From an uncultured virus (IMG/VR IMGVR_UViG_3300048502_000088) (lineage: Duplodnaviria > Heunggongvirae > Uroviricota > Caudoviricetes), in the IMG/VR virus record IMGVR_UViG_3300048502_000088, positions 62,001 to 96,486 of that record: a stretch of DNA of 34,486 nucleotides; one strand, written 5' to 3'. The notes beneath the pieces are model-generated. The model was not told where the DNA came from and ran no database searches. It was given only the letters and a program-made list of their open reading frames with translations. How positions within the stretch are numbered: the first letter of the stretch is position 1; every line of letters starts with the position of its first letter. A program made the position numbers and the translations under genes. Positions 304 to 34,269 of the stretch are shown piece by piece.

Positions 304-2184
304 TTAAAGCCCGACCGATCCGTCTTCGGCGTCGGGTTCCGACGTCGGAGTTCCGCTGCCGTCACGCTTGATCAGTTGCAGTCCAACTCCGCGAGGGAAT
401 CCGTCCGTGCCAGTACCCTTGACCGCCTGGCCGATGGGGAGCACCGGATTGTTGGGCGTGCCGACTGCGGTGAGTTTGTCAACCAGTGCGGTCAGCGCGT
501 CAATCTTCGCGTCGTACCCCTTCTGCATGCCCTTGAGCGCCTCACTCACGGCGGCGGCGACATCCGGCTCAGCGGACTTTGCCATCTCAGCGTCCACGTC
601 TTTGCAGACCTGTGCGAGAGCAGCCTTACCAGCGTCGGAGTCGTAGTCCATGCCGCTCGCCATTGCGTGCGCGTGCTCGGCCATCGCGTCCATGGCCTTG
701 CCCATTTTTTCGTGGTGAGCTTCCTTATCGGTGTGGTGTTCCATCTGCGCCTTGCAGAACGCCATCTGCGCCTTGGGGCCAGCCGAGGTTTCGCCGTCGG
801 CCTTGCCTACCTCGCCCTTGTGGTGCTCCATCATGGCCTTGCATGCTTCCTTCATCTCGCCATGAGACGCTGCCATTTTTTCGTGCATGTCGGCGCACTT
901 TCCGAAGTGCGCGCCCATTTTCTTGAAGTGAGCCGCGAGACCCTTTTTCGCCGCCTTCAGCATTTCTTCGTTCATTTTTTTTGCTCCTGTGTTGGGTTCG
1001 GCGGTCTTGGTAGCCACCGGTATGACTGCTTTAGCAGCGGGAATCAGCTCTGCGGCCTCTTCGGCGCACATCGTTACGAGACTGTCGGCCAACTGCTCCA
1101 CGTGATCGCGGAGCATATCGGGCATTTCGGAGTCGTCACCCTCGTACTCCTCTTCGGCGATGCTGGACCGCCAGAGGTACGCGAGATCCTGAAGGATCTG
1201 TGCGAAGCGGGATACGTCGTACAGCCCCTTTTTAAGGTTGTGCTTCGCCGCGCTCCTGGTGACTGCTTCCGAGAATTTCGCCGTTACCGCTGCGACCATC
1301 TTGTCGGCGGACACCTCGATGCCTGCGGCGCGGGCGGCGGCGGTGATGCGGGCGTGGACCTTTTCCTTCTCATCCTCAGGTATGCCCTTGGCTTGCTCCC
1401 AGCGAGCTAATGCATTTCTCAGGTGGCTCCTGGTGAGAGCGGGGCTGGAGAATTTGATCGGGAACTTCCAGGTGGAAGTGTCTTTGGGGTCGCCTACGTA
1501 GGCGAAGGCGCTTTCGGGTAGGTCTTCACCGGCTACTCGTTTGGTGGGGGCCGCATCGGCGGACTTCTCAGCGGGCGCAAACTTGCGCATCTCGCTGGAG
1601 CCGTTTGCTTTCTGGTAACGGAAACTGGCGGACTTCACGGAGTCGAAGTGGGCGGCGTCGAGGCAGGGGTTGTCTACGAAGGAGACTTCGGAGATTTTGG
1701 CTGCGTAGTCCACAACGGGGTTTGCCTTTTTGCACTTACTGCACGACACTACGCCCGTTTTTTCGTCTTCCTGTGGATCGGCAGAGCAACAAATTGTAGA
1801 CTTCTTGGTGTAGCGCCCGGCCTGAGAAAATCCAGTGACCAAGCCTCGCCGCAGCATGTCGCTGATCTCAGCGTTAGCGGCCTGAGCACCGATCTTAATG
1901 GCCTTTGCGGCGTCGTCGAAGTCCATTTTCTGGACCTTCCCGGCAATCACGCCAGCGTGCATGAGGCGAACGTTTCCGAGGGACGGCTCTTGACCTGCCA
2001 GCGTGGTGGACTCAAATATTTCGTTCGACCAAGCCTTCGTTAAAGGCACCTGCCAGTCGTAGATGCAGCGCTCGTTATCCTTGTCCACCTTTTCGGCGGT
2101 CATGATCCCGTAAGCGGTCGCGAGTCCATCGGGTCCGTCAACAACGTCGGTGATGGTGACTGTCTTGCGAAATTCCTTCATCAA
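304..2184 (-). CDS. Prohead protease / scaffold fusion
   Basis: 626 aa; N-terminal VDKDNE...RLMH...TGFSQAG...ISEVSFVDNP pattern of phage maturation proteases; central FAYVGDP...WKFPI...H.RNALAR domain; His/Met/Ala-rich helical C-terminus; between portal and capsid genes. Confidence 0.75.
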   Translation of the reverse strand: MMKEFRKTVTITDVVDGPDGLATAYGIMTAEKVDKDNERCIYDWQVPLTKAWSNEIFESTTLAGQEPSLGNVRLMHAGVIAGKVQKMDFDDAAKAIKIGAQAANAEISDMLRRGLVTGFSQAGRYTKKSTICCSADPQEDEKTGVVSCSKCKKANPVVDYAAKISEVSFVDNPCLDAAHFDSVKSASFRYQKANGSSEMRKFAPAEKSADAAPTKRVAGEDLPESAFAYVGDPKDTSTWKFPIKFSSPALTRSHLRNALARWEQAKGIPEDEKEKVHARITAAARAAGIEVSADKMVAAVTAKFSEAVTRSAAKHNLKKGLYDVSRFAQILQDLAYLWRSSIAEEEYEGDDSEMPDMLRDHVEQLADSLVTMCAEEAAELIPAAKAVIPVATKTAEPNTGAKKMNEEMLKAAKKGLAAHFKKMGAHFGKCADMHEKMAASHGEMKEACKAMMEHHKGEVGKADGETSAGPKAQMAFCKAQMEHHTDKEAHHEKMGKAMDAMAEHAHAMASGMDYDSDAGKAALAQVCKDVDAEMAKSAEPDVAAAVSEALKGMQKGYDAKIDALTALVDKLTAVGTPNNPVLPIGQAVKGTGTDGFPRGVGLQLIKRDGSGTPTSEPDAEDGSVGL

Positions 2185-2499: not shown

Positions 2500-2753
2500 C
2501 CGACTTCGACATCGCCCGCCAGCAGGCGTGGGATAGGTTCGCTGCGCACGCCTCAGAATGCACCTTCATTAGGGTAGGTCCGAACGGGGAAATGCTAGAC
2601 AATGTCAAGGATCGCTCTGCGCAGCTTGCCGCTGAGCGTGCGGACGCGCTGTTGGCTGAGCGGGACAAGCGATTTACTGCGGAGGGGTCGGCGCTGGGAC
2701 TGAAGCCAGCCACGGAACCGCTGGCCCCGAGGTTCATGGGGTCCGCTGATTGA
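2496..2753 (+). CDS. Hypothetical protein
   Basis: 85 aa; GTGA/TTGA overlaps with both neighbours. Confidence 0.6.
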   Translation: MTDFDIARQQAWDRFAAHASECTFIRVGPNGEMLDNVKDRSAQLAAERADALLAERDKRFTAEGSALGLKPATEPLAPRFMGSAD

Positions 2754-3283
2754 CCGCCATAGCAGGCTTCATCCACACAGACGGCAGGGTCTGGATCGGC
2801 GGCGACAGCGCGGGTTCCTGTGGTCCCGATTTAACGCTCCGTGCCGACCCGAAGATATTCCGCAACGGAGACTTCCTGTTCGGGTTCACCTCCAGCTTCC
2901 GCATGGGGCAGGTTCTCCGTTACAAATTCCAACCGCCAGAGCGCCACGATCAGGAGATTTTTTCCTACATGGTGACGACGTTCGTGGATGCGGTGCGAGC
3001 CTGCCTGAAGGATGCCGGTATGGCTTCGAAGGACAAGGAAGTCGAGAGCGGAGGGACGTTCCTGATCGGCTATCAGGGAAGACTGTTTCTCATTGATGGC
3101 GATTATCAGGTGGAGGAACCGCTGGACGGGTACGACGCCTGCGGGTCGGGACATGCACTGGCGCGTGGGGCGTTGTTTGCTACGCATGGGATGGAGCCAG
3201 CGGCGCGGATAACGACGGCGCTTCAGGCTGCGGAGCGGCATAACTGCATGGTGCGGGGGCCGTTTGTGGTGGACAGTATTTAA
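2750..3283 (+). CDS. HslV/proteasome-beta-like Ntn-hydrolase peptidase
   Basis: Thr directly after Met, GGDS near N-terminus, conserved K, ACGSG..A.GAL motif; 177 aa. Confidence 0.75.
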   Translation: MTAIAGFIHTDGRVWIGGDSAGSCGPDLTLRADPKIFRNGDFLFGFTSSFRMGQVLRYKFQPPERHDQEIFSYMVTTFVDAVRACLKDAGMASKDKEVESGGTFLIGYQGRLFLIDGDYQVEEPLDGYDACGSGHALARGALFATHGMEPAARITTALQAAERHNCMVRGPFVVDSI

Positions 3284-3300
3284 GGGAGACCCCAGCAAGG

Positions 3301-6300
3301 CTACTTAAATTTCGTGGCTATTTGTATACACCGGCATTTTGGGTGAGCCACGGGCCGCACGTGGCCTGAAGGAAAAGCCTTACCGAACTCTACCGGCCCT
3401 GCATCGGCATTAGCCTGGCACTCATCGCACGGCCCCAAGGACGAGCAAACCCACTTCGTAGCCAGCACCACCCCAGTCTGCTCCCAGGCGGCGTAATTTC
3501 CCGCCGACTGCGCGTTGTGAACCTCGGTGGCAGCGATATTCTCCGCTCGCGCCTCATCGAACGTGTCCAGGTCCTTGATGGCCTGGATGAGGTCGGTCAT
3601 CTTCGTCTCCGCCGAGAAAGCATCCGTGACCGCCTTGCGGATCGCCTCCCGCGTGGTCGCGTCGATACTCCACGCGGCATTCGGATTAGCCACCAGCTCC
3701 CCATCCACCCACTTCATGCCGACCATCTCAGCGGCACGGTCCTGTGCAAACTCGCGCGCCAGTTGCTGCTGTGTGCCGATGTTTACCGAAGACACGGCCT
3801 GCACTTGCGACAATCCACGGAGCGCACCTGAGTGCGCGGCTTCGTACAAAGTTTCCTCCACGATAGACGGCAGGTCGAAGACTTCGTAGTCCAACGCGGC
3901 GTACAGGATCATATCGCGCTGGTCGTCTTTGCGGAGTTTGCCTCTGGAGATTTTCTTGACGCTGGAGATTCTGGTGATAACGCCTGACTTGATGCCAGTA
4001 AGCCACTTGTGGACATCCTGCTTCAGCTGAAGCTTCAGGTGTTTTGTGCTGGCGTCATCCGCAGGATCGTTGCTGGCTTCGGAGGTCGGATCAGCTTCGG
4101 CTGAGATCACCGGCGTGGAGACGGTAACTGGTTGCGGTGCGCGGTCGGTGAAGGGGTCTGTCCCGTCACCCTTGGCCGTCTTCAGCGCAGCGGGAACGCC
4201 CAACAGTTCCACGCGCTCTGGATCACCGTCCCTGGGGCTGATTGTGATCGCGGTTACGTTGTATGTCAGGCCCGCCATGGCGGTGCTCATGGACTCCACA
4301 TACGACGCTGCATTGTCTGGATTTACGTAGGCGATGGTGGCGTGCGGGTGATACTCGAAGTCGGCTTTCTTCCAGTCGCCGTGTGCCACGATGGATGCGT
4401 TGATGGATGCCAGATCCGAAGACTCAACCTCAACGTGCAATGGCGCGGCGTCATCGCTGTTGGCGGTCGGATCGAATGCCGCTACCTTGCCGAAGGCGAT
4501 ATTGAACGGCGGCATATCGCGGAGATGCTTACGGATGGCGGCGGTGTCGCCCTTGAAGCCATAACGAACCGTTATGTGGGGGGTATTCTCCAGTCCCTTC
4601 GCCATCAAATGCGATTTATCGATGGACGCCCGCAGTGCGGCTAGCTTCATGCCTGCGTCACTGGCAGGGGCGATGTCTACCTGCGTACTCCCGTAGGAAT
4701 ACTTCTCGAGGCCACGGAGCATCAACGGCGCATCCTCGTCAACCGGCACCGCGTCAAACACCTTACCCGAAGGTATCGACCAGACCTTCTCGACCTGGGT
4801 CCCCGGCACAAACATCGGCATGGGGTCGCCGCGTTCGACCAGGATGACCCTGCTGGACTTGCGGGAGCGGGCGGGTTCAGGTGGCGCTACTTGTGGTGTC
4901 GGCTTAGGGTCGTCTGAGTTTGCGGGGGGCGCTCCGATGGCAAGCCAGCCGTTAGGCGTCAACGCCCCGAGTTGGTCCGCCTGTGGCTCAGCGCGTGGAT
5001 CGTCGCCTCTGAGCTCCCGGCGTTCGTTGATCGTGTAGATGCCGCTCTTGACGTAGCCGGTATCGATCTCCATTTGCTTGAGTCCGTCAAGTTCCATCTG
5101 CGGGTCAAAGGATATTTCGTATTGGTCGTAGCCCAGCTTGCGCTGGATGAAGAAGTTTAGCTGTGCCTGGAGCCACTGGACGTACGGGGCCGTGCCTTCT
5201 TCTTCGGCGGCGTCCTGGGCCGCGACAGCTGATGCGCGGTTCATCGATTTCAGGAGTCGTTGTGCTGAGCATCCAATCCCGAACGAAATCTGATGGATCA
5301 GGTAGTCGTCGAACAGGTCAGTCAGCAGCGGTTCCTTCGGGAATAGGATCTGCTCCTGTTTTCCGTCCCGCTGAAATCCCTGAATGACGCGGTACCCACG
5401 GCGGGTATCGAGTTGCCCGGACAGTTCTGAGTTCATCCACTGCATCGCCTCGGTGGCCTCTTTGGCGGTCACGTCGGCGGGGGCGATATGGAGCATGTCG
5501 GGGATGCTGCCTGAGCGGTAGTAGGCGTAAACGAAGATGAGGCGGGCGACGCCGATCTCGATAAGTTTGGCGATTTGCTCGACGCTGCCGAATCCGTAGA
5601 GCGCACTCGACATAGTGTTACGCGGAGCAATATTTCGGGGCACGTAAAATAGCTGATCCGTAGTGCAATCGATCCTTGGAATCCCGTCCCAGAGCTGACT
5701 ATATGCAGGGCTTGGAGGCTCCGGCGTGAACCCAGTGTCGTCAATATAACGCGCAATGGAATCACTACTCAGGAGCACCTTGAGGCGCGGAATGCCGCCC
5801 CTACTGCCGCGCTCCACGGCGAAACATGCGCTGTCGGTAACGAGCATCGCATCAAGGAATGGCCTCAACCACTGCGACCACGGCTGCTGGCCATCGGGGC
5901 ACTCGAACAGCCCGGTCAGTCTGCCGATGTTCTTGTCCCTCATGGCGCGCTTAGCGCGGTCGGTGTGCATCTCGCCAGCAACCGGCTTCAGTTGGATGCG
6001 CCACGGCAGGTAGCAGATCGTGTCTTTGACGTTCTCAATACAGATGCGGGCGAGGGGGTATTGCGAAAGGGTCTTAAGTTGAGCCGCCGTGTACTCAGCA
6101 TCCGGCCTCGGCGTATAAACCAGATTCTGCCCGTAGAAGAAATTCATCCCCAACGGCTGCGAGCCTGGCGGCCCCATCGGCTGTATCGGCTGCAACGCTG
6201 ACGGCCAGTTGCGGGAATCTACCCCCGCGATGGTAGATGGAGGCGGGCGGAACAGGCCATTCGCCATGCGACGGGCGCCGTTCGCAACGGCATTGGCCAG

Positions 6301-6342
6301 TGGGGCGATGTTACGAACTATCGGAGCCTGAATGAGACGCAT
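3301..6342 (-). CDS. Portal protein fused to 2H phosphoesterase (Acb1-like) and MuF head-morphogenesis domain
   Basis: aa ~1-470 portal-like (YGFGSVEQ, GIYTINERRE.RG.DP); HITV (His589) and HATI (His667) 2H motifs; C-terminal RAENIAATE...KW...C..C...AHPKCRC MuF signature. Confidence 0.85.
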   Translation of the reverse strand: MRLIQAPIVRNIAPLANAVANGARRMANGLFRPPPSTIAGVDSRNWPSALQPIQPMGPPGSQPLGMNFFYGQNLVYTPRPDAEYTAAQLKTLSQYPLARICIENVKDTICYLPWRIQLKPVAGEMHTDRAKRAMRDKNIGRLTGLFECPDGQQPWSQWLRPFLDAMLVTDSACFAVERGSRGGIPRLKVLLSSDSIARYIDDTGFTPEPPSPAYSQLWDGIPRIDCTTDQLFYVPRNIAPRNTMSSALYGFGSVEQIAKLIEIGVARLIFVYAYYRSGSIPDMLHIAPADVTAKEATEAMQWMNSELSGQLDTRRGYRVIQGFQRDGKQEQILFPKEPLLTDLFDDYLIHQISFGIGCSAQRLLKSMNRASAVAAQDAAEEEGTAPYVQWLQAQLNFFIQRKLGYDQYEISFDPQMELDGLKQMEIDTGYVKSGIYTINERRELRGDDPRAEPQADQLGALTPNGWLAIGAPPANSDDPKPTPQVAPPEPARSRKSSRVILVERGDPMPMFVPGTQVEKVWSIPSGKVFDAVPVDEDAPLMLRGLEKYSYGSTQVDIAPASDAGMKLAALRASIDKSHLMAKGLENTPHITVRYGFKGDTAAIRKHLRDMPPFNIAFGKVAAFDPTANSDDAAPLHVEVESSDLASINASIVAHGDWKKADFEYHPHATIAYVNPDNAASYVESMSTAMAGLTYNVTAITISPRDGDPERVELLGVPAALKTAKGDGTDPFTDRAPQPVTVSTPVISAEADPTSEASNDPADDASTKHLKLQLKQDVHKWLTGIKSGVITRISSVKKISRGKLRKDDQRDMILYAALDYEVFDLPSIVEETLYEAAHSGALRGLSQVQAVSSVNIGTQQQLAREFAQDRAAEMVGMKWVDGELVANPNAAWSIDATTREAIRKAVTDAFSAETKMTDLIQAIKDLDTFDEARAENIAATEVHNAQSAGNYAAWEQTGVVLATKWVCSSLGPCDECQANADAGPVEFGKAFPSGHVRPVAHPKCRCIQIATKFK

Positions 6343-6422: not shown

Positions 6423-7064
6423 TCACGGTCCCTCCCACTTCCCACCCACCTTAACCTGCCACGCAGGCGACCCAAACAACTCAGCGGAGTACCTGGTGCG
6501 CGGCGATTCCGGCATCTCATACCGGGAGTCATCCAGTTGCTTACGCGCCAGGTCAATCTTCCTGATCTCAGCCTCCAGCGGAGCTTTGGCCTCTTCCGCC
6601 TCGTTGATCGAACTCTCGATGGTGTTCAGGAGTGCCCGCTTAACCCGATCCCCGCCCCTCCATCGCGCGGTAATATTATCCCCCGCCTTCCGCCACTTGT
6701 CAGTCACGCGGTTGAGTTGCGAGATACTGGCCCGCGCTGTAGCCTCCTGCGAAGACAGGCTATTCAGCACACCCTCAAGGATATTGCAGTTCGGGTTATC
6801 GTTCAGGATGCTCATGGTGATCTGACGGATCAGCGTGAGCGCGTTCAGGATTGCGTTATCCTCACCAGCGATAAGGCCGGTGACGTCGTATGCCGCCCGC
6901 GTGTTTGGGTCGATCAGGATGTCGTGGGCTTTCTTGGTGCGGAGGAAGGCCTCGGGGTCGCCGGTAATGTCCGGGTGGTGCTGTCTGGCCAGGATACGGT
7001 AGGCTTCGCGGATATCGGATTCGGTGGCGTCGGTGGGGAGGTCGAGGACCTCATAAGGATTCAA
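6423..7064 (-). CDS. J-domain (DnaJ-like) protein with coiled-coil C-terminus
   Basis: NPYEVL...IREAYR.LARQHHPD...AHDIL.DP..RAAYD with intact HPD; probable TTG start at 7064 overlaps the upstream TGA. Confidence 0.85.
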   Translation of the reverse strand: MNPYEVLDLPTDATESDIREAYRILARQHHPDITGDPEAFLRTKKAHDILIDPNTRAAYDVTGLIAGEDNAILNALTLIRQITMSILNDNPNCNILEGVLNSLSSQEATARASISQLNRVTDKWRKAGDNITARWRGGDRVKRALLNTIESSINEAEEAKAPLEAEIRKIDLARKQLDDSRYEMPESPRTRYSAELFGSPAWQVKVGGKWEGP

Positions 7065-7246
7065 AGTAAATACGCCTTCCGGTACCGCTGTATTTGCTCG
7101 TCCGTCAACGGATAATCCCGCGCACCGCAGCACAACTTGCACGTATCCAGCCCCGGCGCGTCCGAGTTACAGGCGGGGCAGAGGTTCCACCATATCCGCC
7201 AGCGGGCTTGCAGGCGGATCAGCCAGAGGGGGGAGGCCGTAGTCAA
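7061..7246 (-). CDS. Small Cys-rich hypothetical protein
   Basis: CPACNSDAP...C..C; coupled to J-domain gene. Confidence 0.55.
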   Translation of the reverse strand: MTTASPLWLIRLQARWRIWWNLCPACNSDAPGLDTCKLCCGARDYPLTDEQIQRYRKAYLL

Positions 7247-10255: not shown

Positions 10256-12409
10256 TCACCACGTCTTCGCCACGTCACCCCTCTTCGGCATCCCCGGCGG
10301 CAATATCAGATTTCCCCAGACGTGCGCGCACTGCGAGCACCGCCAGCCCTGCTGCATCCGCGACACCGACACCGACGTACACGCGGGGCACGCCAGTGTC
10401 TCATCCCCGACTGCGGGCTTTGTCATCTGACTGCCAACCACCTTACCCATAATCTTTTTGGCCAACTCGTTATCTCCAATCTGACCCTGCACCACAGGGT
10501 TCTCCGCCATCTTCTTCATTAACTCGATCAGCCCCATGCTCCGGTTTAAGCCGAACAGCTCCGTGAGCGCGAACACGCAGGCGTCCAGCGACCCCGGCGA
10601 ACGCCCCAGTCTTTTCCTGACATCCTCCGCCGTGTCGCCGCTGCGGATCGAGCACATCTCCTCTTCGAGCGTCTGGAATACTCCGCAGTGGATAACTCGC
10701 GTCGGCTGATTCTCGTACAGCAGAGACACGGGGTCCGCTCTCAATATTTTCCCCCGCGAAGAAGTTACCAGGTCCACGCGCATGTGTGGGTTCGCATGGT
10801 GAAGCGTGCTGCGGACCATCTCCCCGCCGTAATTCCGTTCGGCGACCACCAGGTCCGCGCCCCATTTGAGCCACATGTCGTTGACCATGGAGGCCCACTT
10901 TTCAGGGGAGCCCGTCATGCTGGCGTCTTCGAGGACGTAAGCGCGGTTATCCTCGCCCATGCCGCAGACGACGATGCCGATGTTGTCGGCCTTTTCCCCG
11001 ATAGCGCCTGAGGCTCCCGACGGATCTACGCCTACGACGATACGGCGCATGGGGACGGGGAAGTCGTTGGTCCCGCCGCATACATCTCCGAGACAGCGAT
11101 CCAGTACCATCGAGGTCCAGAGCGCTCCCGGCAGTTCGTCCTGGTAGTCGCCATCCCTGAACCGCGCGCGCATACGTGCCGGCATCCGGTCGAGCATGGC
11201 CAAATAATCGGGGTCGATGTTTTGCAGGTTATCGACCGGGTTCATCTTCAACCAGGCGTAGTCGGCGGGGTTCAGCTTCTTCTCCGGCGACAACGGGTCA
11301 ACGTTGAGGTGGAACTCCTTGTAACTCCAGTGCCCGCGCCCGACAGGGTTGAGATCGTGGAATTCCCTGTTTTTCAGGTAGCAGGAAGAGATTATGCCTT
11401 CAGGGGTAACGTGCGTCGAGTGGTCCTTGCACTGATCACAGAGCCCCTTGCGCCCCACAACGCGCTGCACAAGGCGGGTACGGACGGTCAGAACCGACTG
11501 GTATGAGATCTGTGAAGATTCATTAATGTGAATGGTGCTGAACTCCCTGCCAAGTACTTTGTCAACACGGTCTTTATCGTCGAGCCCGCCGACCCAATAC
11601 TCAGAGCCGTTCAGGAACGTCATATAGCCAAACTGGAGATTCAGCTTAACCGCCGCGCGCAGCCCTGGAAAGAAAAGGTCCATCACCTTCGGGATTGTGT
11701 CGAGCCAGAGGGACTCCCAGGCATTGACGCGGTGAAGCCTGAGGCTGACATGGCGGCTACCCGCGTTGAACAACGCGCGGTTGATGATGTTGCGGACTAT
11801 TACCGCTGTTTTGCCGGAGTTGTGGTTCAGGATGCCGTTGGCGAAATATTGCTCGGTTACCGGGACGTGAAGCGTGTAGTATGGAAGCTCCGCAGCGCCG
11901 ATAACGGAGACGACGCGATCCATGGCGTAACCGCCGGGCGCCGGGTTATCTCGTGACTTGCCAGTTAACCGCCACCATGCCAACAGAAGGACGTCGCTGA
12001 GCCTTTCAATCCGACCCTCCGGCAGAACGGCGACCCCAACGCCAGGAAGCAGCCGCTGCGCCTGAACCCACCCTGACTGCGACCAGAACCGATGATCAGG
12101 CGTCACCGTTATTCGACGACCCGACGCCAGCGTCACTTCCAGCATCCGACAGTAGCCTTTAAGGAAAGGTGCTTCCGCTACCTGCGTACCGCGAGAGGTG
12201 ATCACCCGGACTGGCTTGCCGATCTCGGCCAGTTCCTTGATCGTCTTATCCTGTCCATCAAGAATCGTCCAACTGGCAACGCAGCGAGATCCCCCTTCAA
12301 GCTGTGTATGGCGGTTTTCACCGCGCATTAAATCGCTTGCCTGAACTTGCTTATCGGTGAACCTGCCCGGCTTCGGTTGCGGCGCGACCGCTACGGCTTT
12401 CTTTGCCAC
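10256..12409 (-). CDS. terL: Terminase large subunit, intein-containing, with C-terminal Zn ribbon
   Basis: Walker A GGSR|SGKT split by intein; Walker B TIHINE; DLNP coupling motif; nuclease VVGVDP...D...E...D; CPAC...CSQC tail. Confidence 0.92.
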   Translation of the reverse strand: MAKKAVAVAPQPKPGRFTDKQVQASDLMRGENRHTQLEGGSRCVASWTILDGQDKTIKELAEIGKPVRVITSRGTQVAEAPFLKGYCRMLEVTLASGRRITVTPDHRFWSQSGWVQAQRLLPGVGVAVLPEGRIERLSDVLLLAWWRLTGKSRDNPAPGGYAMDRVVSVIGAAELPYYTLHVPVTEQYFANGILNHNSGKTAVIVRNIINRALFNAGSRHVSLRLHRVNAWESLWLDTIPKVMDLFFPGLRAAVKLNLQFGYMTFLNGSEYWVGGLDDKDRVDKVLGREFSTIHINESSQISYQSVLTVRTRLVQRVVGRKGLCDQCKDHSTHVTPEGIISSCYLKNREFHDLNPVGRGHWSYKEFHLNVDPLSPEKKLNPADYAWLKMNPVDNLQNIDPDYLAMLDRMPARMRARFRDGDYQDELPGALWTSMVLDRCLGDVCGGTNDFPVPMRRIVVGVDPSGASGAIGEKADNIGIVVCGMGEDNRAYVLEDASMTGSPEKWASMVNDMWLKWGADLVVAERNYGGEMVRSTLHHANPHMRVDLVTSSRGKILRADPVSLLYENQPTRVIHCGVFQTLEEEMCSIRSGDTAEDVRKRLGRSPGSLDACVFALTELFGLNRSMGLIELMKKMAENPVVQGQIGDNELAKKIMGKVVGSQMTKPAVGDETLACPACTSVSVSRMQQGWRCSQCAHVWGNLILPPGMPKRGDVAKTW
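11819..12283 (-). mobile_element. Mini-intein (155 aa, no homing endonuclease) in the TerL P-loop
   Basis: Starts at Cys43, TPDH block B, ends YFANGILNHN, +1 Ser; removal restores GGSRSGKT. Confidence 0.92.
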
Positions 12410-16045: not shown

Positions 16046-16384
16046 TCAACGTTGCCATACAACTCCGCAGTTGACGGTTTCGCGCAACTCAACCCGCGAA
16101 ACCAATTCGATTTTATTGCCGATCCACCGAGCAATGATCTCGCAGGTTGGGTTCGGCATGAAGTCATTGAGGCACCGATGATCGAGCGCGTCTTTAATCG
16201 GCTCCCACAAACGCTTCAGTTCGGCGTAATCCACCACCCACCCCATTGTGGCGTCAATCTCGCCAGTTACCTCCAGGCGCACGCGGTAGGTATGTCCGTG
16301 CATTCTGTGGCACTTGTGGCCATCGGGCACGTTGGGGAGATAGCGAGCCGCGTCGAAACTGTCTTCAAGAAATATCGTCATCAT
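16046..16384 (-). CDS. queD: 6-carboxy-5,6,7,8-tetrahydropterin synthase
   Basis: FDAA...KCHRMHGHTY...GWVVDY..LK...LDHR.LND...NPT.E.IA...L.ET; first Zn-ligand His position reads Arg (FDAARYL). Confidence 0.9.
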   Translation of the reverse strand: MMTIFLEDSFDAARYLPNVPDGHKCHRMHGHTYRVRLEVTGEIDATMGWVVDYAELKRLWEPIKDALDHRCLNDFMPNPTCEIIARWIGNKIELVSRVELRETVNCGVVWQR

Positions 16385-17803: not shown

Positions 17804-18484
17804 TCATGATGACACCTTGATCTGTCTGGCAATAAATTCGGAGTAAGCAGGTGGAATCGACTCCGAAAGTTCGTCGATTTTCATCCAGTCTATCCCCATT
17901 GCCTCAAAGCCCCAAGATTGAGGAAGAACCACCCCGATTGGATTCCCGCGTGTCTCCTTTGGCTTAGCGTAATGCCGTTTCTCTTGCGCGATGTTCCGGA
18001 CCTTCGCGCCATAAACCCCAAGGGTTTTATCGGCATGGCGACAAGGACCGGGGGTGCTGATTTCACAGTTGGACTCGAAATATCGATGGCGGCGCAATTG
18101 GAAACCGTGAGATTGCAAATTGAACATGCTTCCGCAGAGCATCACGGCATCTTTCAACGGAGCGCCAAATACATTTTCGATGACATAGGGCAGACGACTT
18201 CTCTTCAGCATCGCCCGAACTGGAGCGATGAGATCGGGATGCTTTCGGGCGTTGGTCATCGTCTTCAGCGCGCAATAGTGTTGGCACGGAGGGCTTGCCC
18301 AAATGAAATCGAAATGTCGCAACCACTCGTAAGTAAAGGCTGGGCTCAGGGCATCAGATTGGGTAAACTGTTCTCCGCAATATCTCGGCTGTGGGTTGAT
18401 GTCTACGCCGTGAACCTTGAACCCAGCCCTCTGCAAACCCTTCGTTACGCCCCCGGCTCCGCAGAAAAGATCCAGCGCCTTCAT
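17804..18484 (-). CDS. Phage-type short C5 DNA cytosine methyltransferase
   Basis: LDLFCGAGG (motif I), ASPPCQ (IV), IENV (VI), R.R.FE (VIII), MGIDWM...SIPPAYSEFI. Confidence 0.9.
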   Translation of the reverse strand: MKALDLFCGAGGVTKGLQRAGFKVHGVDINPQPRYCGEQFTQSDALSPAFTYEWLRHFDFIWASPPCQHYCALKTMTNARKHPDLIAPVRAMLKRSRLPYVIENVFGAPLKDAVMLCGSMFNLQSHGFQLRRHRYFESNCEISTPGPCRHADKTLGVYGAKVRNIAQEKRHYAKPKETRGNPIGVVLPQSWGFEAMGIDWMKIDELSESIPPAYSEFIARQIKVSS

Positions 18485-23821: not shown

Positions 23822-23965
23822 ATGAAACGATACTGGATCTACTTCCGTGGCACGCGCAACGGCGAACATATTACCGCTCCGACCATGGCCGCCGCTAAGG
23901 CTGCATTCGCAGCTAACAACGGCATCCCCTCAACATCCGGCTACATCGCAGGCAGGGCGGCATGA
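23822..23965 (+). CDS. 47-aa hypothetical protein
   Basis: AGGAG RBS; MKRYWIYFRG...; TGA overlaps recombinase ATG. Confidence 0.5.
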   Translation: MKRYWIYFRGTRNGEHITAPTMAAAKAAFAANNGIPSTSGYIAGRAA

Positions 23966-24684
23966 GAAAGCCCAAGCCCGTAGCGCGCCATTGGTACGGC
24001 TACGTCAGAGTCTCAACCGAGGAGCAAGACACTTCCGGCCTGGGCCTCGAATCCCAGGCCGAAAAAATACAAGGCATGGCGACAGCTAAGGGGATAACCC
24101 TCAAGGGCGTCATAACGGACGGTGGTTACAGCGCTAAGTCACTCGACCGTCCTGGTATGCAGCAACTCTTAACCCTCATGCGTGCGGGTGAGGTGGCCGG
24201 TGTCATCATCAGTAAATTAGACCGTCTAACCCGCTCCGTGAAGGATCTATCTGTCATCCTGGACTTACTCACGGATCGGGACATAAATCTTATTAGCACT
24301 TACGAGACCCTGGACACCGGCACTGCCGGGGGGCGTATGATCCTGCATATCACAACCACGATTGCGCAGTGGGAGCGCGAGGTAATCTCCGAGCGCACGC
24401 GGGACGCCTTACGCGCCAAGGCTCGCCGGGGCGAGCACGCGGGCATGGTCCGGTACGGCTACCGATCCACCGGTAAGAGGGGCCTGCAAGTCCCTGACGA
24501 AGCAGAGCAGGCCATCATAACCCGCATTACCGAAGGGCGGGCCTGCGGACTATCTATGCAGGCGATTGCCGATCAGCTCAACGCGTGCGGGCTGGCCACC
24601 CGGCGCGGGAGTGCCTGGCGCGTGCAGTATGTCGCCAACGTCCTCAGCGGCCTGGCGCGGGCCGGGGCGGTTCCGGCGGCCTGA
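23962..24684 (+). CDS. Serine recombinase (resolvase catalytic domain plus short recombinase domain)
   Basis: GYVRVSTEEQ, D.G.SAKSLDRPG, KLDRLTRS, AQWERE.ISERT, YGY, IA..LN..G..TRRG..W. Confidence 0.93.
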   Translation: MRKPKPVARHWYGYVRVSTEEQDTSGLGLESQAEKIQGMATAKGITLKGVITDGGYSAKSLDRPGMQQLLTLMRAGEVAGVIISKLDRLTRSVKDLSVILDLLTDRDINLISTYETLDTGTAGGRMILHITTTIAQWEREVISERTRDALRAKARRGEHAGMVRYGYRSTGKRGLQVPDEAEQAIITRITEGRACGLSMQAIADQLNACGLATRRGSAWRVQYVANVLSGLARAGAVPAA

Positions 24685-29474: not shown

Positions 29475-30428
29475 ATGGAACGTGAGCCAACCAGCCTTCA
29501 GGAAGCCATTCTATACTTTGCTGATCCGACAAACTGCCGAGACTATTTGGTGAAGCGCCGCTGGCCGGATGGCGTGGTTAAATGCCCGACGTGCGGCTGC
29601 GATCAAGTAAAGTTCCTGGCGAACCAGAACCGCTGGTGGTGCCCGAACGAACACTCCCAACGGCAGTTCAGCCTGAAGACTGGCACGATCTACGAAGAAT
29701 CGCCCCTCGGTCTGGACAAGTGGCTCACAGCAACCTGGCTGATTACGAACTGCAAAAACGGCGTGTCGTCATGCGAGATCGCGCGGGCGCTGAACATCAC
29801 GCAGAAAACGGCATGGTTCCTGGATCATCGCATTCGGCTATCGTTCGGTCTGGCGAGTCCCGACAAGTTCACCGGGCATTGTGAGGCGGACGAAACTTTC
29901 ATCGGGCAGAAGTCGCGCAACATGCACCGCGACGTTCGCGCCCGCAAGATCACCGGAACGGGCGGCAAGGATAAAACCGCCGTCATGGGCATTCTGGAAC
30001 GTGGCAAGGACGGCAAGCCAAGCCAGATGCGAACGACCGTGATTCCGAACCGCAAGAAGAAAGCCCTACAGGCTGAAGTCCGCAAGCACGTTGAGGCCGG
30101 ATCGGCGCTGTACACTGACGCGCTCCAGTCCTACACCGGACTGACTGAGTTTCAGCACGGCGTTGTGGACCATGCCGTGAAGTATGTCGATGGGAAAATT
30201 CACACGAACGGCTGCGAAAACTTCTGGAGTCTGACCAAACGGATGCTGAACGGTACGTATGTTTCCGTGGAGCCTTTCCACTTGTTTCGCTACTTGGATG
30301 AGCAGAGCTACCGGTTCAACAATCGGAAGATGACGGACGCGGAGCGGTTCGACTTGGCCGTGCGTGGGATCGTTGGTAAGCGGATCATGTACGATCAGTT
30401 GACCGGGAAGATGGACGCGACGGCATGA
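29475..30428 (+). CDS. IS1595-family transposase
   Basis: RWPDG..CP.CG Zn ribbon, EADET, TD, HTN..ENFW, YLDE..YRFN; TTGCCT-N17-TATAAT promoter overlapping the left TIR. Confidence 0.95.
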   Translation: MEREPTSLQEAILYFADPTNCRDYLVKRRWPDGVVKCPTCGCDQVKFLANQNRWWCPNEHSQRQFSLKTGTIYEESPLGLDKWLTATWLITNCKNGVSSCEIARALNITQKTAWFLDHRIRLSFGLASPDKFTGHCEADETFIGQKSRNMHRDVRARKITGTGGKDKTAVMGILERGKDGKPSQMRTTVIPNRKKKALQAEVRKHVEAGSALYTDALQSYTGLTEFQHGVVDHAVKYVDGKIHTNGCENFWSLTKRMLNGTYVSVEPFHLFRYLDEQSYRFNNRKMTDAERFDLAVRGIVGKRIMYDQLTGKMDATA

Positions 30429-30480: not shown

Positions 30481-31440
30481 CTAGCCGATTTTTTGACGCA
30501 GCCAGTCAAATGCAGATTGCCGTTCAGTTATGTTCGGTTCGGAGAATAACCCCATTGCATCGTCTCGTTGGATCGCCAGTATCCTGCGACCAATGAACTC
30601 TGCAATTGGCGGCGCTACCGCGTTGCCAATGAGTCGCCCGCGTCTACCGTCCAACCGGGCGGGAATCCCATCAGTTTCTCGCACTCGGTCCAGGTCAAGT
30701 TTCTGGCCACATAATATTGGTCTGTCAGAGTGACCGCCCTGATGCTTTCCAGTTTGGGCGCGTATCGTGGGGCAGATGCCTTTTGCCGAGGTGTACCCAA
30801 AGCCTCCGCGACGCTGAACCAAAAGCGGAGCGTCTGAGATAAACTCTCCATGAACGCGGGGTCTAGTGTCCGTTCGGCCCTCTCCTCTCGCCGGAGTATC
30901 CCTAAGCAATTTGCTGGGCTCAGAATAGAACCGATGGGAAAGCGCCGATCTATAAGATCCGACAAGAAATACTCTTTCGCGATTGTGGGGAAGGCCCGCG
31001 CTGAGAGTGTTACACGCAAACCATACGCCCATATACCCGATCTTTTCAAGTTCGTCGATAACTGACTCAAAGGCGGACCCCCCGTCTGAACTGAGGAGGC
31101 CCGCGACATTCTCCAGGACAATCCATGATGGCTGAACTTTTCCAGCAAGTTCCGCAAACCTGAAAAACAGTCCGCTTCTGGCTCCGTGGATTCCTTTGCG
31201 TTTAGAATTTCCATGGCTGACGTCTTGACACGGCCAGCCGGCCGCCCAGACTTCAGCTTGGGGGATGTCTTTCGCTTTGAGCGTGGTGATATCGTCATGA
31301 AGTGGAACCTCCGGCCAGTGCCGCTTTAGAATTCGTTGACAATGGGGATCGATCTCGCAGTGGAATGCTGGCTTCATGCCAGCCCACTGAAAACCAAGAT
31401 CAAAACCGCCTATTCCGGCAAAAAATGATGCGAAGCGCAT
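30481..31440 (-). CDS. C5 cytosine methyltransferase, alpha polypeptide (motifs I-VIII and X)
   Basis: FAGIGG, GWPCQ, ENV, R.RVF, GNAV; no canonical motif IX in this frame. Confidence 0.92.
   Translation of the reverse strand: MRFASFFAGIGGFDLGFQWAGMKPAFHCEIDPHCQRILKRHWPEVPLHDDITTLKAKDIPQAEVWAAGWPCQDVSHGNSKRKGIHGARSGLFFRFAELAGKVQPSWIVLENVAGLLSSDGGSAFESVIDELEKIGYMGVWFACNTLSAGLPHNRERVFLVGSYRSALSHRFYSEPSKLLRDTPARGEGRTDTRPRVHGEFISDAPLLVQRRGGFGYTSAKGICPTIRAQTGKHQGGHSDRPILCGQKLDLDRVRETDGIPARLDGRRGRLIGNAVAPPIAEFIGRRILAIQRDDAMGLFSEPNITERQSAFDWLRQKIG
30615..31298 (-). CDS. Nested alternative-frame methyltransferase beta polypeptide carrying motif IX
   Basis: 227-codon ORF wholly within the alpha gene ending RNLTWTECEKLMGFPPGWT; start uncertain (31298 or 31214). 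Confidence 0.75.
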   Translation of the reverse strand: MTISPRSKRKTSPKLKSGRPAGRVKTSAMEILNAKESTEPEADCFSGLRNLLEKFSHHGLSWRMSRASSVQTGGPPLSQLSTNLKRSGIWAYGLRVTLSARAFPTIAKEYFLSDLIDRRFPIGSILSPANCLGILRREERAERTLDPAFMESLSQTLRFWFSVAEALGTPRQKASAPRYAPKLESIRAVTLTDQYYVARNLTWTECEKLMGFPPGWTVDAGDSLATR

Positions 31441-31462
31441 TATAGGACCCCCGCACATGTTC

Positions 31463-33131: not shown

Positions 33132-33337
33132 AGCCACTACTGAGCGGAATGCCTGAACCCGAAACGCCGGTATACCAGGCCAGCACGATGGACTGGACGC
33201 CGGAACAGCGCCGCGCGTGGCTTGTCAATCGCGATGCCGAAGCGTCCGCGCGAATACGCGCCGGTAACCGGCAAAAGGATTCCGATGTGGACGCGCCTGG
33301 TTTGGATCGCGCGTGCGAACTGGACGGAATGTACTAA
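33128..33337 (+). CDS. Hypothetical protein
   Basis: ATGA and TAATG overlaps with both neighbours. Confidence 0.55.
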   Translation: MKPLLSGMPEPETPVYQASTMDWTPEQRRAWLVNRDAEASARIRAGNRQKDSDVDAPGLDRACELDGMY

Positions 33338-34269
33338 TGTCCCGCTCCACCATTTCCACCTTTCAACTCTTCGAGCGGTTCCCCGATCAGGAAGCCGCTC
33401 GAATCTACCTCGAAGGCCGCCTGTGGCCCTCCGGTCCTACCTGTCCGCAGTGTCACTCCAGAGATCGCGTGACGGCGCGTCCGAAGGGTTCTTATCGTTG
33501 CGGCGCGTGCAACAAGTTCACGTTCACGGTGAGAGATGGCACGATCTTTGGAGCATCAAAGATTCCCCTCCACAAGTGGGTTTACGCCATGTACTTGCTA
33601 GTGACGGCGCGTAAGGGGATTTCTTCGCTTCAACTGGCGAAGGAAATCGGGATCACCCAGAAGTCCGCATGGTTCATGCTGCAACGCTTACGCGAAGCCT
33701 GTTCGACCCCCGACAACATCGACAAGCTCCGGGGGATCATCGAAATCGACGAGACGTTCGTGGGCGGCAAAGAGAAGAATAAGCATGAGCATAAAAAGCT
33801 CAAAGCCGGGCGCGGATCGGTAGGCAAAACCGCTGTGCTCGGGATGCGCGAACGCGGTAACGCTGGCCGGACCCGCGCGATGGTTGTAGACTCCACAGAC
33901 GCAGGGACGGTCCAGAACGAAATTCACGGCATGGTCGAAGCCGGATCGCAACTCTACACGGACGAGTTCGGCGCGTACACCGACCTCGACGGCCTGTTCT
34001 TTTCGCACGACACCTGCAACCACAGCGCGGGCGAATGGGTCAAGGGCGCGGCGCACACGAACAGCATCGAGAGCGTTTGGGCCGTGCTCAAGCGTGGTCT
34101 GCACGGTGTCTATCACCACGCCTCGCCGAAGCACCTGCACCGCTACGTGGACGAGTTCACCTGGCGACTGAACGAGGGTAACGTCATCGTCCACACCTTG
34201 CGCCGCCTGGACTCGTTTGTTGACGCTGTAGCGGGCAAGCGTATCACCTACAAAGAGGTGATCGCGTGA
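33337..34269 (+). CDS. IS1595-family transposase
   Basis: CPQC...C..C Zn ribbon, EIDET, TDE, HTNSIESVW, YVDEF.WR.N; ATG overlaps upstream TAA. Confidence 0.95.
   Translation: MSRSTISTFQLFERFPDQEAARIYLEGRLWPSGPTCPQCHSRDRVTARPKGSYRCGACNKFTFTVRDGTIFGASKIPLHKWVYAMYLLVTARKGISSLQLAKEIGITQKSAWFMLQRLREACSTPDNIDKLRGIIEIDETFVGGKEKNKHEHKKLKAGRGSVGKTAVLGMRERGNAGRTRAMVVDSTDAGTVQNEIHGMVEAGSQLYTDEFGAYTDLDGLFFSHDTCNHSAGEWVKGAAHTNSIESVWAVLKRGLHGVYHHASPKHLHRYVDEFTWRLNEGNVIVHTLRRLDSFVDAVAGKRITYKEVIA

Follow-up and report, generated by a model that had tools for sequence, protein, structure and literature searches.

A portal protein fused to a 2H phosphoesterase and a MuF module as a candidate capsid-cargo enzyme in an uncultured phage

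The record IMGVR_UViG_3300048502_000088 (96,486 bp, CheckV completeness 94%) belongs to an uncultured virus, and its final 34.5 kb (34,486 nucleotides, here called the window) carry a gene in which a portal protein, a 2H phosphoesterase and a MuF module of the SPP1 gp7 type are joined in one chain. The gene lies at 3301..6342 on the (-) strand and encodes 1013 amino acids (aa) plus stop. The 2H fold of the enzyme and its targeting to the virion are well grounded, and the fusion probably serves the loading of the enzyme into the capsid. We propose, with moderate confidence, a capsid-cargo design in which the 2H phosphoesterase degrades host nucleotide immune signals, either after ejection or in the producing cell. 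Across the record, our local portal, 2H and MuF profiles and the Pfam model Phage_portal match the fused gene and nothing else. As there is only one portal match in the whole record, the phage has no plain portal, and because this is the sole portal gene, the enzyme would be present on every portal subunit.

The 1013 aa are counted from the first ATG; the open frame extends over 1025 aa and is not interrupted anywhere (window 3301-6342, (-) strand). Three folded modules, the portal (aa 1-474), the 2H domain (aa 546-716) and MuF (aa 764-1013), are connected by two disordered linkers. A preliminary description of this DNA, made from its letters alone, had noted an uninterrupted 1013-aa open reading frame (ORF) with a portal region, a Pro-rich linker, His-x-Thr (HxT) motifs at His589 and His667 and a C-terminal MuF domain, and profile searches, an AlphaFold2 model and a motif scan confirm all of these. 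The sequence is metagenome-derived, which leaves room for the view that the fused gene results from an assembly error or a frameshift, or that the 2H domain is a dead spacer. We consider this highly improbable. The full-length ORF recurs at 97% identity in L009, a separately assembled viral contig of 94,887 bp, and an ungapped codon comparison of the two ORFs gave 52 synonymous and 36 non-synonymous codon differences, with about 14 of the latter stemming from a small indel near the C-terminus. Because the same ORF is found in an independent contig, the fusion is not an assembly artefact. The order portal-2H-MuF is found again in P0046, P0048 and P0070/L012, so that the survey of this three-domain architecture that the preliminary description had called for shows it to recur, and the HxT motifs and their flanking residues are invariant among relatives, which speaks against a dead spacer as well. 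The 2H codons (4195-4707) are identical between the window and L009, while 30 codons differ in the portal and overall identity of the region is 98.7%. About 7 differences would be expected in 522 nucleotides, and their complete lack may be due to chance or, possibly, to a recent cassette exchange.

The portal module (aa 1-474; 4921..6342, (-) strand) matches phrog_2662 over aa 65-491 (E value 8.8e-55) and the local portal hidden Markov model (HMM) over aa 40-470, and its fold matches solved portals. The score for Pfam Phage_portal PF04860 is below the cut-off (23.4 vs 39.1 bits), which is passed by 14 of the 22 close relatives (P0002-P0023). A full-length AlphaFold2 model was obtained from a 45-sequence alignment, with a mean predicted local distance difference test score (pLDDT) of 79.4 and a predicted template modelling score (pTM) of 0.48. 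It contains three confident bodies, split by stretches with a pLDDT below 50 at aa 475-545 and 717-761. The portals of phage 812, HK97, the Rhodobacter gene transfer agent (GTA), T5 and lambda are its best PDB matches, and the top ~30 Foldseek matches in the PDB are all portal proteins, with template modelling scores, normalised to the target, of at most 0.64. Linker 1 (aa 475-545; 4708..4920, (-) strand) is Pro-rich, with 6 and 8 Pro residues in the 40-residue blocks that start at aa 441 and aa 481, and it differs in length and sequence across relatives. Linker 2 (aa 717-763; 4054..4194, (-) strand) is rich in Pro, Thr, Asp and Ser, and both linkers are predicted to be disordered. The MuF module (aa 764-1013 plus stop; 3301..4053, (-) strand) matches phrog_2468 over aa 892-1005 (E value 4.5e-14), eight further MuF-type PHROGs and the local MuF HMM over aa 860-1013. 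Pfam Phage_Mu_F PF04233 scores 27.8 bits, slightly below the cut-off of 29.6, and the module aligns to relatives that pass this Pfam model. Its helical N-terminal part was modelled with a pLDDT of 81-96.

The middle domain (aa 546-716; 4195..4707, (-) strand, close to the ~4190-4700 of the preliminary description) is identified by PF13563, which matches aa 577-707 with 47.1 bits in the whole protein and 51.5 bits in the domain alone (cut-off 27), and by a domain model. The H-x-[TS] pattern occurs exactly twice in the 1013 aa, as H589-I-T591 (4570..4578, (-) strand; family consensus HVTVRYG) and as H667-A-T669 (4336..4344, (-) strand; family consensus EYHPHATLAYV). H589, T591, R593, Y594, G595, H667 and T669 are invariant in all seven close relatives compared, and in a set of 33 sequences the positions of both His and both Thr are invariant or at least 90% conserved. 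Modelling of the piece aa 530-725 (P0025) with a 33-sequence alignment gave a pLDDT of 92.3 and a pTM of 0.84. A Foldseek search of the PDB with this model returned 38 matches at an E value of at most 0.001, and the listed matches, down to rank 44, are all 2H-fold proteins; they include Usb1, the penguinpox cyclic GMP-AMP (cGAMP) phosphodiesterase, archaeal 2'-5' ligase-like proteins, a plant cyclic phosphodiesterase (CPDase), LigT, AKAP18 and Acb1. The model therefore supports a 2H fold with an intact HxT/HxT pair for the middle domain, in line with the original assignment.

It is less straightforward to place this domain within the 2H fold, and several results count against a close relationship with Acb1, the anti-CBASS nuclease (CBASS is an antiphage signalling system based on cyclic oligonucleotides). 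When the 2H model was ranked against solved structures, the highest Z scores were those of Thermus TT0787 (1iuh, 16.2), the Deinococcus CPDase (5h7e, 15.9), a Pyrococcus 2'-5' ligase-like protein (1vdx, 15.7), human Usb1 (6d2z, 15.1) and E. coli LigT (5ldm, 14.5), followed by ns2 of mouse hepatitis virus (MHV; 4z5v, 13.4), Acb1 of phage FBB1 (7t26, 13.1, with 135 of 137 residues aligned), the enzyme of Burkholderia phage BCSR5 (9q2g, 13.0) and the penguinpox cGAMP phosphodiesterase (9bkq, 11.8). In the modelled structure Acb1 is thus not singled out: LigT-like, CPDase and Usb1 entries outrank it, by a Z gap of ~1.4-3 units that depends on chain length and arises partly from the shorter Acb1 chain. 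On the 2H domain, Pfam Acb1 (PF23474) scores only 14.1 bits (E value 0.04; cut-off 27). The BLASTP match between the window 2H domain and T4 Acb1 is insignificant (E value 0.064 over 13 residues), and the family profile has no significant match among the PDB sequences, the best 2H entry being BCSR5 Acb1 (9q2g) with an E value of 0.75. In another sequence search of the PDB, a match to the designed repeat protein 7ong (three stretches, each with an E value of ~0.8) was discarded as not meaningful.

These results raise the question of whether the cargo is directed against RNA, either as an RNA 2',3'-cyclic phosphodiesterase of the LigT/CPDase type, involved in end-healing, or as a Usb1-like 3' exoribonuclease, acting on host or phage RNA early in infection, for example on tRNAs cut by host anticodon nucleases. 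Apart from the better structural ranks of LigT-like, CPDase and Usb1 entries, LigT_PEase (PF02834) scores 25.8 bits on the 2H domain, above its cut-off of 23.3, and an 'RNase comparable to Usb1' is one of the two options offered in the passage on these domains in PMC5512222. However, we find RNA-directed cargo rather unlikely. The Z advantage over Acb1 is limited to the few, chain-length-dependent units given above, and the LigT/ThpR model TIGR02258 scores 19.4 bits, against an equivalog cut-off of 65.7. An hhalign comparison of the family profile with E. coli ThpR/LigT yielded a probability of 2.2% and a mis-registered match of 27 columns. Moreover, Pfam models for RNA ligase, KptA, polynucleotide kinase and RtcB found no match in the 103 ORFs scanned, of which 38 were picked from the window and 65, each of at least 90 aa, from the remainder of the record.

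In the same type of comparison, the family profile aligned to T4 Acb1 (gene 57B) with a probability of 45.7% (E value 2.1e-4) over 77 columns that cover both HxT motifs. Of 33 family members compared with Pfam, all match PF13563, 17 match Acb1 at an E value of at most 0.01 (best 4.8e-6) and 16 match LigT_PEase. A link is provided by P0024, a metagenomic MuF-fused protein that passes Pfam Acb1 with 35.2 bits. It is 29% identical to the window 2H domain over 166 aa (E value 2e-12), is aligned to the family by hhalign with a probability of 98.5%, and matches T4 Acb1 in BLASTP with an E value of 6e-6. We read the domain as a distinct 2H clade that, by its sequence, seems nearer to Acb1 than to LigT, outside Acb1 as Pfam defines it. 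The absence of an RNA-repair partner together with the Acb1-leaning sequence makes us lean towards signal degradation rather than RNA repair. The label 'Acb1-like' of the preliminary description is therefore partly supported: the hhalign comparison speaks for it and the Pfam Acb1 score does not, and we regard the label as reasonable but unproven. The Foldseek comparison with Acb1 and LigT that the same description had suggested recovered both as 2H folds, and in the Z ranking LigT stands above Acb1.

The distribution of the 2H module among phage proteins suggests that it is mobile. An exhaustive phmmer search with the 2H domain found 2377 clusters at an E value of at most 0.001 and 665 at an E value of at most 1e-10. 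We examined 150 relatives (P0026-P0175), consisting of 149 phmmer matches, with the protein of the query excluded, and P0029. Their median length is 934 aa; 55 are longer than 1500 aa and 20 are shorter than 350 aa, which indicates that the module is mostly found inside long multidomain proteins. At least 8 of the 150 contain a portal, 3 of these also MuF, and at least 6 contain MuF without a portal, with the 2H domain before or after it. These counts are lower bounds, because the portal and MuF profiles were built locally from this portal-MuF family and other portal or MuF families escape them. The order portal-2H-MuF is present in P0048 (983 aa), in P0046 (1368 aa), where the portal is split by an insert, and in P0070 (1730 aa), which is apparently the same as a 1730-aa ORF of L012 with identical domain coordinates. 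Inserts of 300-370 aa that match intein-type profiles split the portal genes of P0007, P0046, P0062 and P0070; P0007 is hit by Intein_splicing, and for the other three the matches are to PHROGs of intein-bearing thymidylate synthase or ribonucleotide reductase. In P0029, P0058 and P0062, which are portal-2H proteins, the C-terminal ~200 aa form a shared non-MuF domain with a conserved 'PFDL...GVE.K...KITM.KDA' and no profile match; we take this stretch to resemble a PD-(D/E)xK nuclease signature.

When the whole protein was used to retrieve viral loci, 79 loci with 95 matching ORFs were obtained. Portal-MuF is by far the most frequent arrangement, with 53 ORFs. A further 20 have MuF alone and 15 a portal alone, 3 are separate 2H-MuF ORFs, 2 have just 2H and 2 are portal-2H-MuF. 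The separate 2H-MuF ORF is downstream of the portal ORF in L017 and L058, and in L018 only the 2H-MuF ORF was detected. A maximum-likelihood tree was made from 29 portal domains, leaving out the fragment P0031 as well as P0070, which fell short of 60% coverage. On this tree, the 8 rows with 2H require at least 4 gains or losses. Shuffles averaged 7.3, and a count this low came up in 2 of 500; the 2H rows came in part from the 2H search, so that the sample is not random. The module is also found in another head protein. Downstream of the portal gene, at 304..2184 on the (-) strand, is a 626-aa head-region gene (DUF6582), whose homologue P0027 (1011 aa; 38% identity, E value 2e-46; N-terminal part, E value 2e-21) has a 2H module inserted between its two halves that is 51% identical to that of the window. 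This implies that the module moves between different head proteins. From these sequence comparisons, the 2H domain appears to behave as a swappable capsid-cargo cassette, and its movement among head proteins fits selection for capsid entry. The window DUF6582 protein has a His-rich helical C-terminal half, with a repeated 'HH' in the BLASTP alignment, and gave no PHROG match below an E value of 0.15 and no PDB sequence match. The N-terminus of P0027 weakly matches a 'head maturation protease' PHROG (E value 2.1e-8), for which the window protein has no match. Cultured-phage matches to the 2H piece were confined to two records, gp321 of Tunturiibacter phage Tunturi_5 and one uncultured phage. 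Tunturi_5 gp321 (L008; 1362 aa) is annotated as 'MutT/NUDIX hydrolase' and is 35% identical to the 2H piece; in this 309-kb phage its gene is flanked by head-tail connector genes and tail genes, and it is likely a polyvalent virion protein. A single-protein scan of bacterial genome contigs produced 290 pattern matches and no relative.

Portal C-termini, which form the crown, point to the capsid interior. In the window protein, the sole portal is followed by a flexible linker of ~70 residues, the 2H phosphoesterase with its intact catalytic motifs, a second linker and the MuF module, which belongs to the head interior. According to the passages on it in PMC6316719, SPP1 gp7, of the MuF family, enters the procapsid by binding to the portal, and gp7-like proteins serve as carriers of toxins into capsids. 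With the crown facing inward and gp7 entering via the portal, about 12 copies of the enzyme are expected inside the head at the DNA-exit vertex. The enzyme would be a phosphodiesterase that needs no metal and breaks down nucleotide signals of host immunity, like Acb1, which cleaves 3'3'-cGAMP, cA3 and related CBASS signals and so rescues phage from CBASS. Candidate substrates are cyclic oligonucleotides of the CBASS or type III CRISPR type, or 2'-5'-linked ones. It may act once it has been freed and ejected together with the DNA, or at an earlier stage, when free portal subunits are still present in the producing cell.

The delivery step of this proposal meets with difficulties, as release from the portal has no support. 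Linkers 1 and 2 share no 3- or 4-mer and contain no VAK, AAK or LAK, a common motif was not visible by eye in the linkers of 10 relatives, and a search for a prohead protease with Peptidase_S78 and phrog_9427 gave no match anywhere in the genome. Protease sites bracketing the enzyme were rejected on these grounds. A scan for slippage sites found no A/T runs. Homopolymers are limited to two C6 runs, at aa 472 and 587, and slippery heptamers to the two at aa 948 and 1001, so that no slip site able to yield a plain portal was found and programmed slippage was rejected as well. If the chain is not cut, the enzyme would stay in the capsid, outside the cell.

The same results are what would be expected if nothing is delivered. 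The enzyme would then remain tethered to the portal in an uncut chain and be active only late in the producing cell, before or while procapsids form. The fusion would then place it in the capsid only incidentally, and the timing would match that of some defence systems that sense head proteins. With a sole portal gene, every subunit carries the enzyme, and published work reportedly connects type I CBASS escape with proteins of virion assembly, and the activation of CBASS with phage proteases. Nevertheless, we think that an enzyme without delivery is unlikely. MuF/gp7-type proteins are documented carriers of cargo to the capsid interior (PMC6316719, in the passages cited above), and the presence of the 2H module in giant 'polyvalent'-type proteins (the 55 of 150 relatives above 1500 aa) and in another head gene fits packaging as a selected trait. 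In addition, the failure of profiles to find a protease is weak evidence. We keep to the capsid-cargo proposal, with action after ejection or in the producing cell. A more far-reaching version, which we put forward only tentatively and are inclined to doubt in its full extent, is that the portal-MuF junction is a general plug-in slot, where, in this phage, ~12 copies of a distant Acb1 relative are freed in the head, enter with the DNA and destroy cyclic-nucleotide signals before gene expression. If true, this would be a time-zero defence against CBASS or type III CRISPR.

The surroundings of the gene are those of a phage late region. The large terminase subunit is encoded upstream (10256..12409, (-) strand; phrog_979, E value 2e-39; Terminase_6C), and the portal gene is part of a late operon with the terminase on the same strand. 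In the 717-aa terminase, the terminase match begins at about aa 197, and aa 55-197 match Intein_splicing with 28.2 bits (cut-off 35.8), so that the terminase possibly contains an intein or what is left of one. The gene immediately upstream of that for the portal, also on the (-) strand, encodes a 239-aa protein with a DnaJ (J) domain (6423-7142; PF00226, E value 5e-16). On the other side, an ORF at 2750-3283 on the (+) strand, antisense within the row of (-) head genes, matches phrog_1040 'peptidase HslV family' (E value 1.6e-24). Going by this match, it is possible that a protease gene adjoins the portal gene; an ORF at 2831-3298 on the (-) strand, which overlaps it, has no match. Transposase, methyltransferase and recombinase genes are located at 29475-30428 (+), 33313-34269 (+), 30481-31458 (-), 17804-18484 (-) and 23962-24684 (+). 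They comprise two IS1595-family transposase genes within the phage genome, two C5 cytosine methyltransferase genes, the short one of which (226 aa) aligns to no more than the N-terminal third of the Pfam model, and a 240-aa serine recombinase with only the start of the 'Recombinase' domain. A gene for a QueD-like 6-pyruvoyl-tetrahydropterin synthase (16046-16384, (-) strand; PF01242, E value 3.3e-25) hints at a DNA modification of the 7-deazaguanine type. Outside the window, at ~33,700-50,100 of the record, there are tail genes that resemble those of the Rhodobacter GTA and phiJL001-type siphophages (Rcc01698_C, DUF2460, Phage_BR0599, Gp84_N). These GTA-like tail genes, together with a GC content of 59%, suggest an alphaproteobacterial host.

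To our knowledge, all characterised degraders of cyclic-nucleotide signals (for example Acb1 and Apyc1) are made after infection starts, and an enzyme borne by the particle would act before the host alarm builds up. Our literature searches found neither experiments on a 2H enzyme fused to portal or MuF nor a demonstration of virion-borne signal degradation. The idea itself is not new. The passage on these domains in Iyer et al. 2017 (PMC5512222) describes phage 2H domains as 'fused to MuF or portal domains' and as lacking a linked RNA ligase, and proposes, besides the RNase role, the degradation of nucleotides from nucleotide-activated defence systems. The counter-defence reading of packaged 2H fusions also appears in the corresponding part of Iyer et al. 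2022 (PMC9503650). The precedent for 2H-portal/MuF fusions to which the preliminary description had alluded is thus in print. For this 2017/2022 prediction, the window gene would be a compact test case, as it has one clearly bounded enzyme module, is the sole portal gene and has a near-identical second isolate. The cassette behaviour also points to the portal-MuF junction as a possible place to look for further packaged effectors.

Among known systems, LigT/ThpR, the 2'-5' ligase-like proteins, CPDase and Usb1 differ from the window domain in that there is no significant sequence-profile match to these enzymes and no RNA-repair partner genes among the ORFs scanned. Acb1, as described in sections of Hobbs et al. 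2022 (PMC9117128), is the anti-CBASS nuclease of T4 (gp57B) and Erwinia phage FBB1, with a catalytic tetrad of H44, T46, H113 and T115 and, in the FBB1 enzyme, a C-terminal lid and the aromatic base-stacking residues Y12, W74 and F107. The window domain shares the 2H fold and the HxT/HxT tetrad, and both motifs align to T4 Acb1 in hhalign. Both read H-x-T-x-x-Y, with [DE]-Y-x-P ahead of the second, a feature that T4 Acb1 also has, and the MuF-fused P0024, which passes Pfam Acb1, connects the two. In contrast, the window domain has ~170 aa and T4 Acb1 152 aa, and Acb1 is free-standing whereas the window 2H domain is a fusion module that scores below the Pfam Acb1 cut-off. The portal-MuF fusions (phrog_2662) have the same portal and MuF modules in the same order. 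Named examples are the 'putative portal protein' of Brevundimonas phages vB_BpoS-Strzyga and Polewnik and gp3 of Arthrobacter phage Sonali, a 'portal and MuF-like fusion protein'. In tblastn, aa 39-1006 of the query were covered at 27-29% identity in the Brevundimonas phages, and 17 of the 22 close metagenomic portal relatives are portal plus MuF (Pfam, E value of at most 0.001). These fusions have ~720-860 aa and no 2H domain, whereas the window protein has ~290 extra residues between portal and MuF, made up of the two linkers and the 2H domain.

SPP1 gp7 and the MuF toxins resemble the window protein in having a MuF-family module that reaches the capsid interior via the portal and carries cargo domains. 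The window MuF is covalently part of the portal chain; gp7 of SPP1, in contrast, is a protein of its own, occurring in a few copies. MuF-carried toxins were reportedly described by Jamet et al. 2017; their cargo is C-terminal to MuF, whereas that of the window protein is N-terminal to it. There is also a likeness, at the level of description, to the polyvalent, head-packaged effectors of Iyer et al. (in the parts of PMC5512222 and PMC9503650 that deal with them). In both cases a 2H domain is combined with portal and MuF in a terminase-portal late-gene context, the proposed role, a prediction in those papers, is that of a packaged and injected enzyme that degrades signals or acts as an RNase, and the window's 2H clade is mostly found in long multidomain proteins. 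As in polyvalent effectors, an enzyme domain is in one chain with virion-head domains, in a phage with portal-terminase packaging. The discovery is incremental, because both the architecture and the reading of it have been published before and recur widely, and the window gene adds to a known, already predicted 2H-portal/MuF kind.

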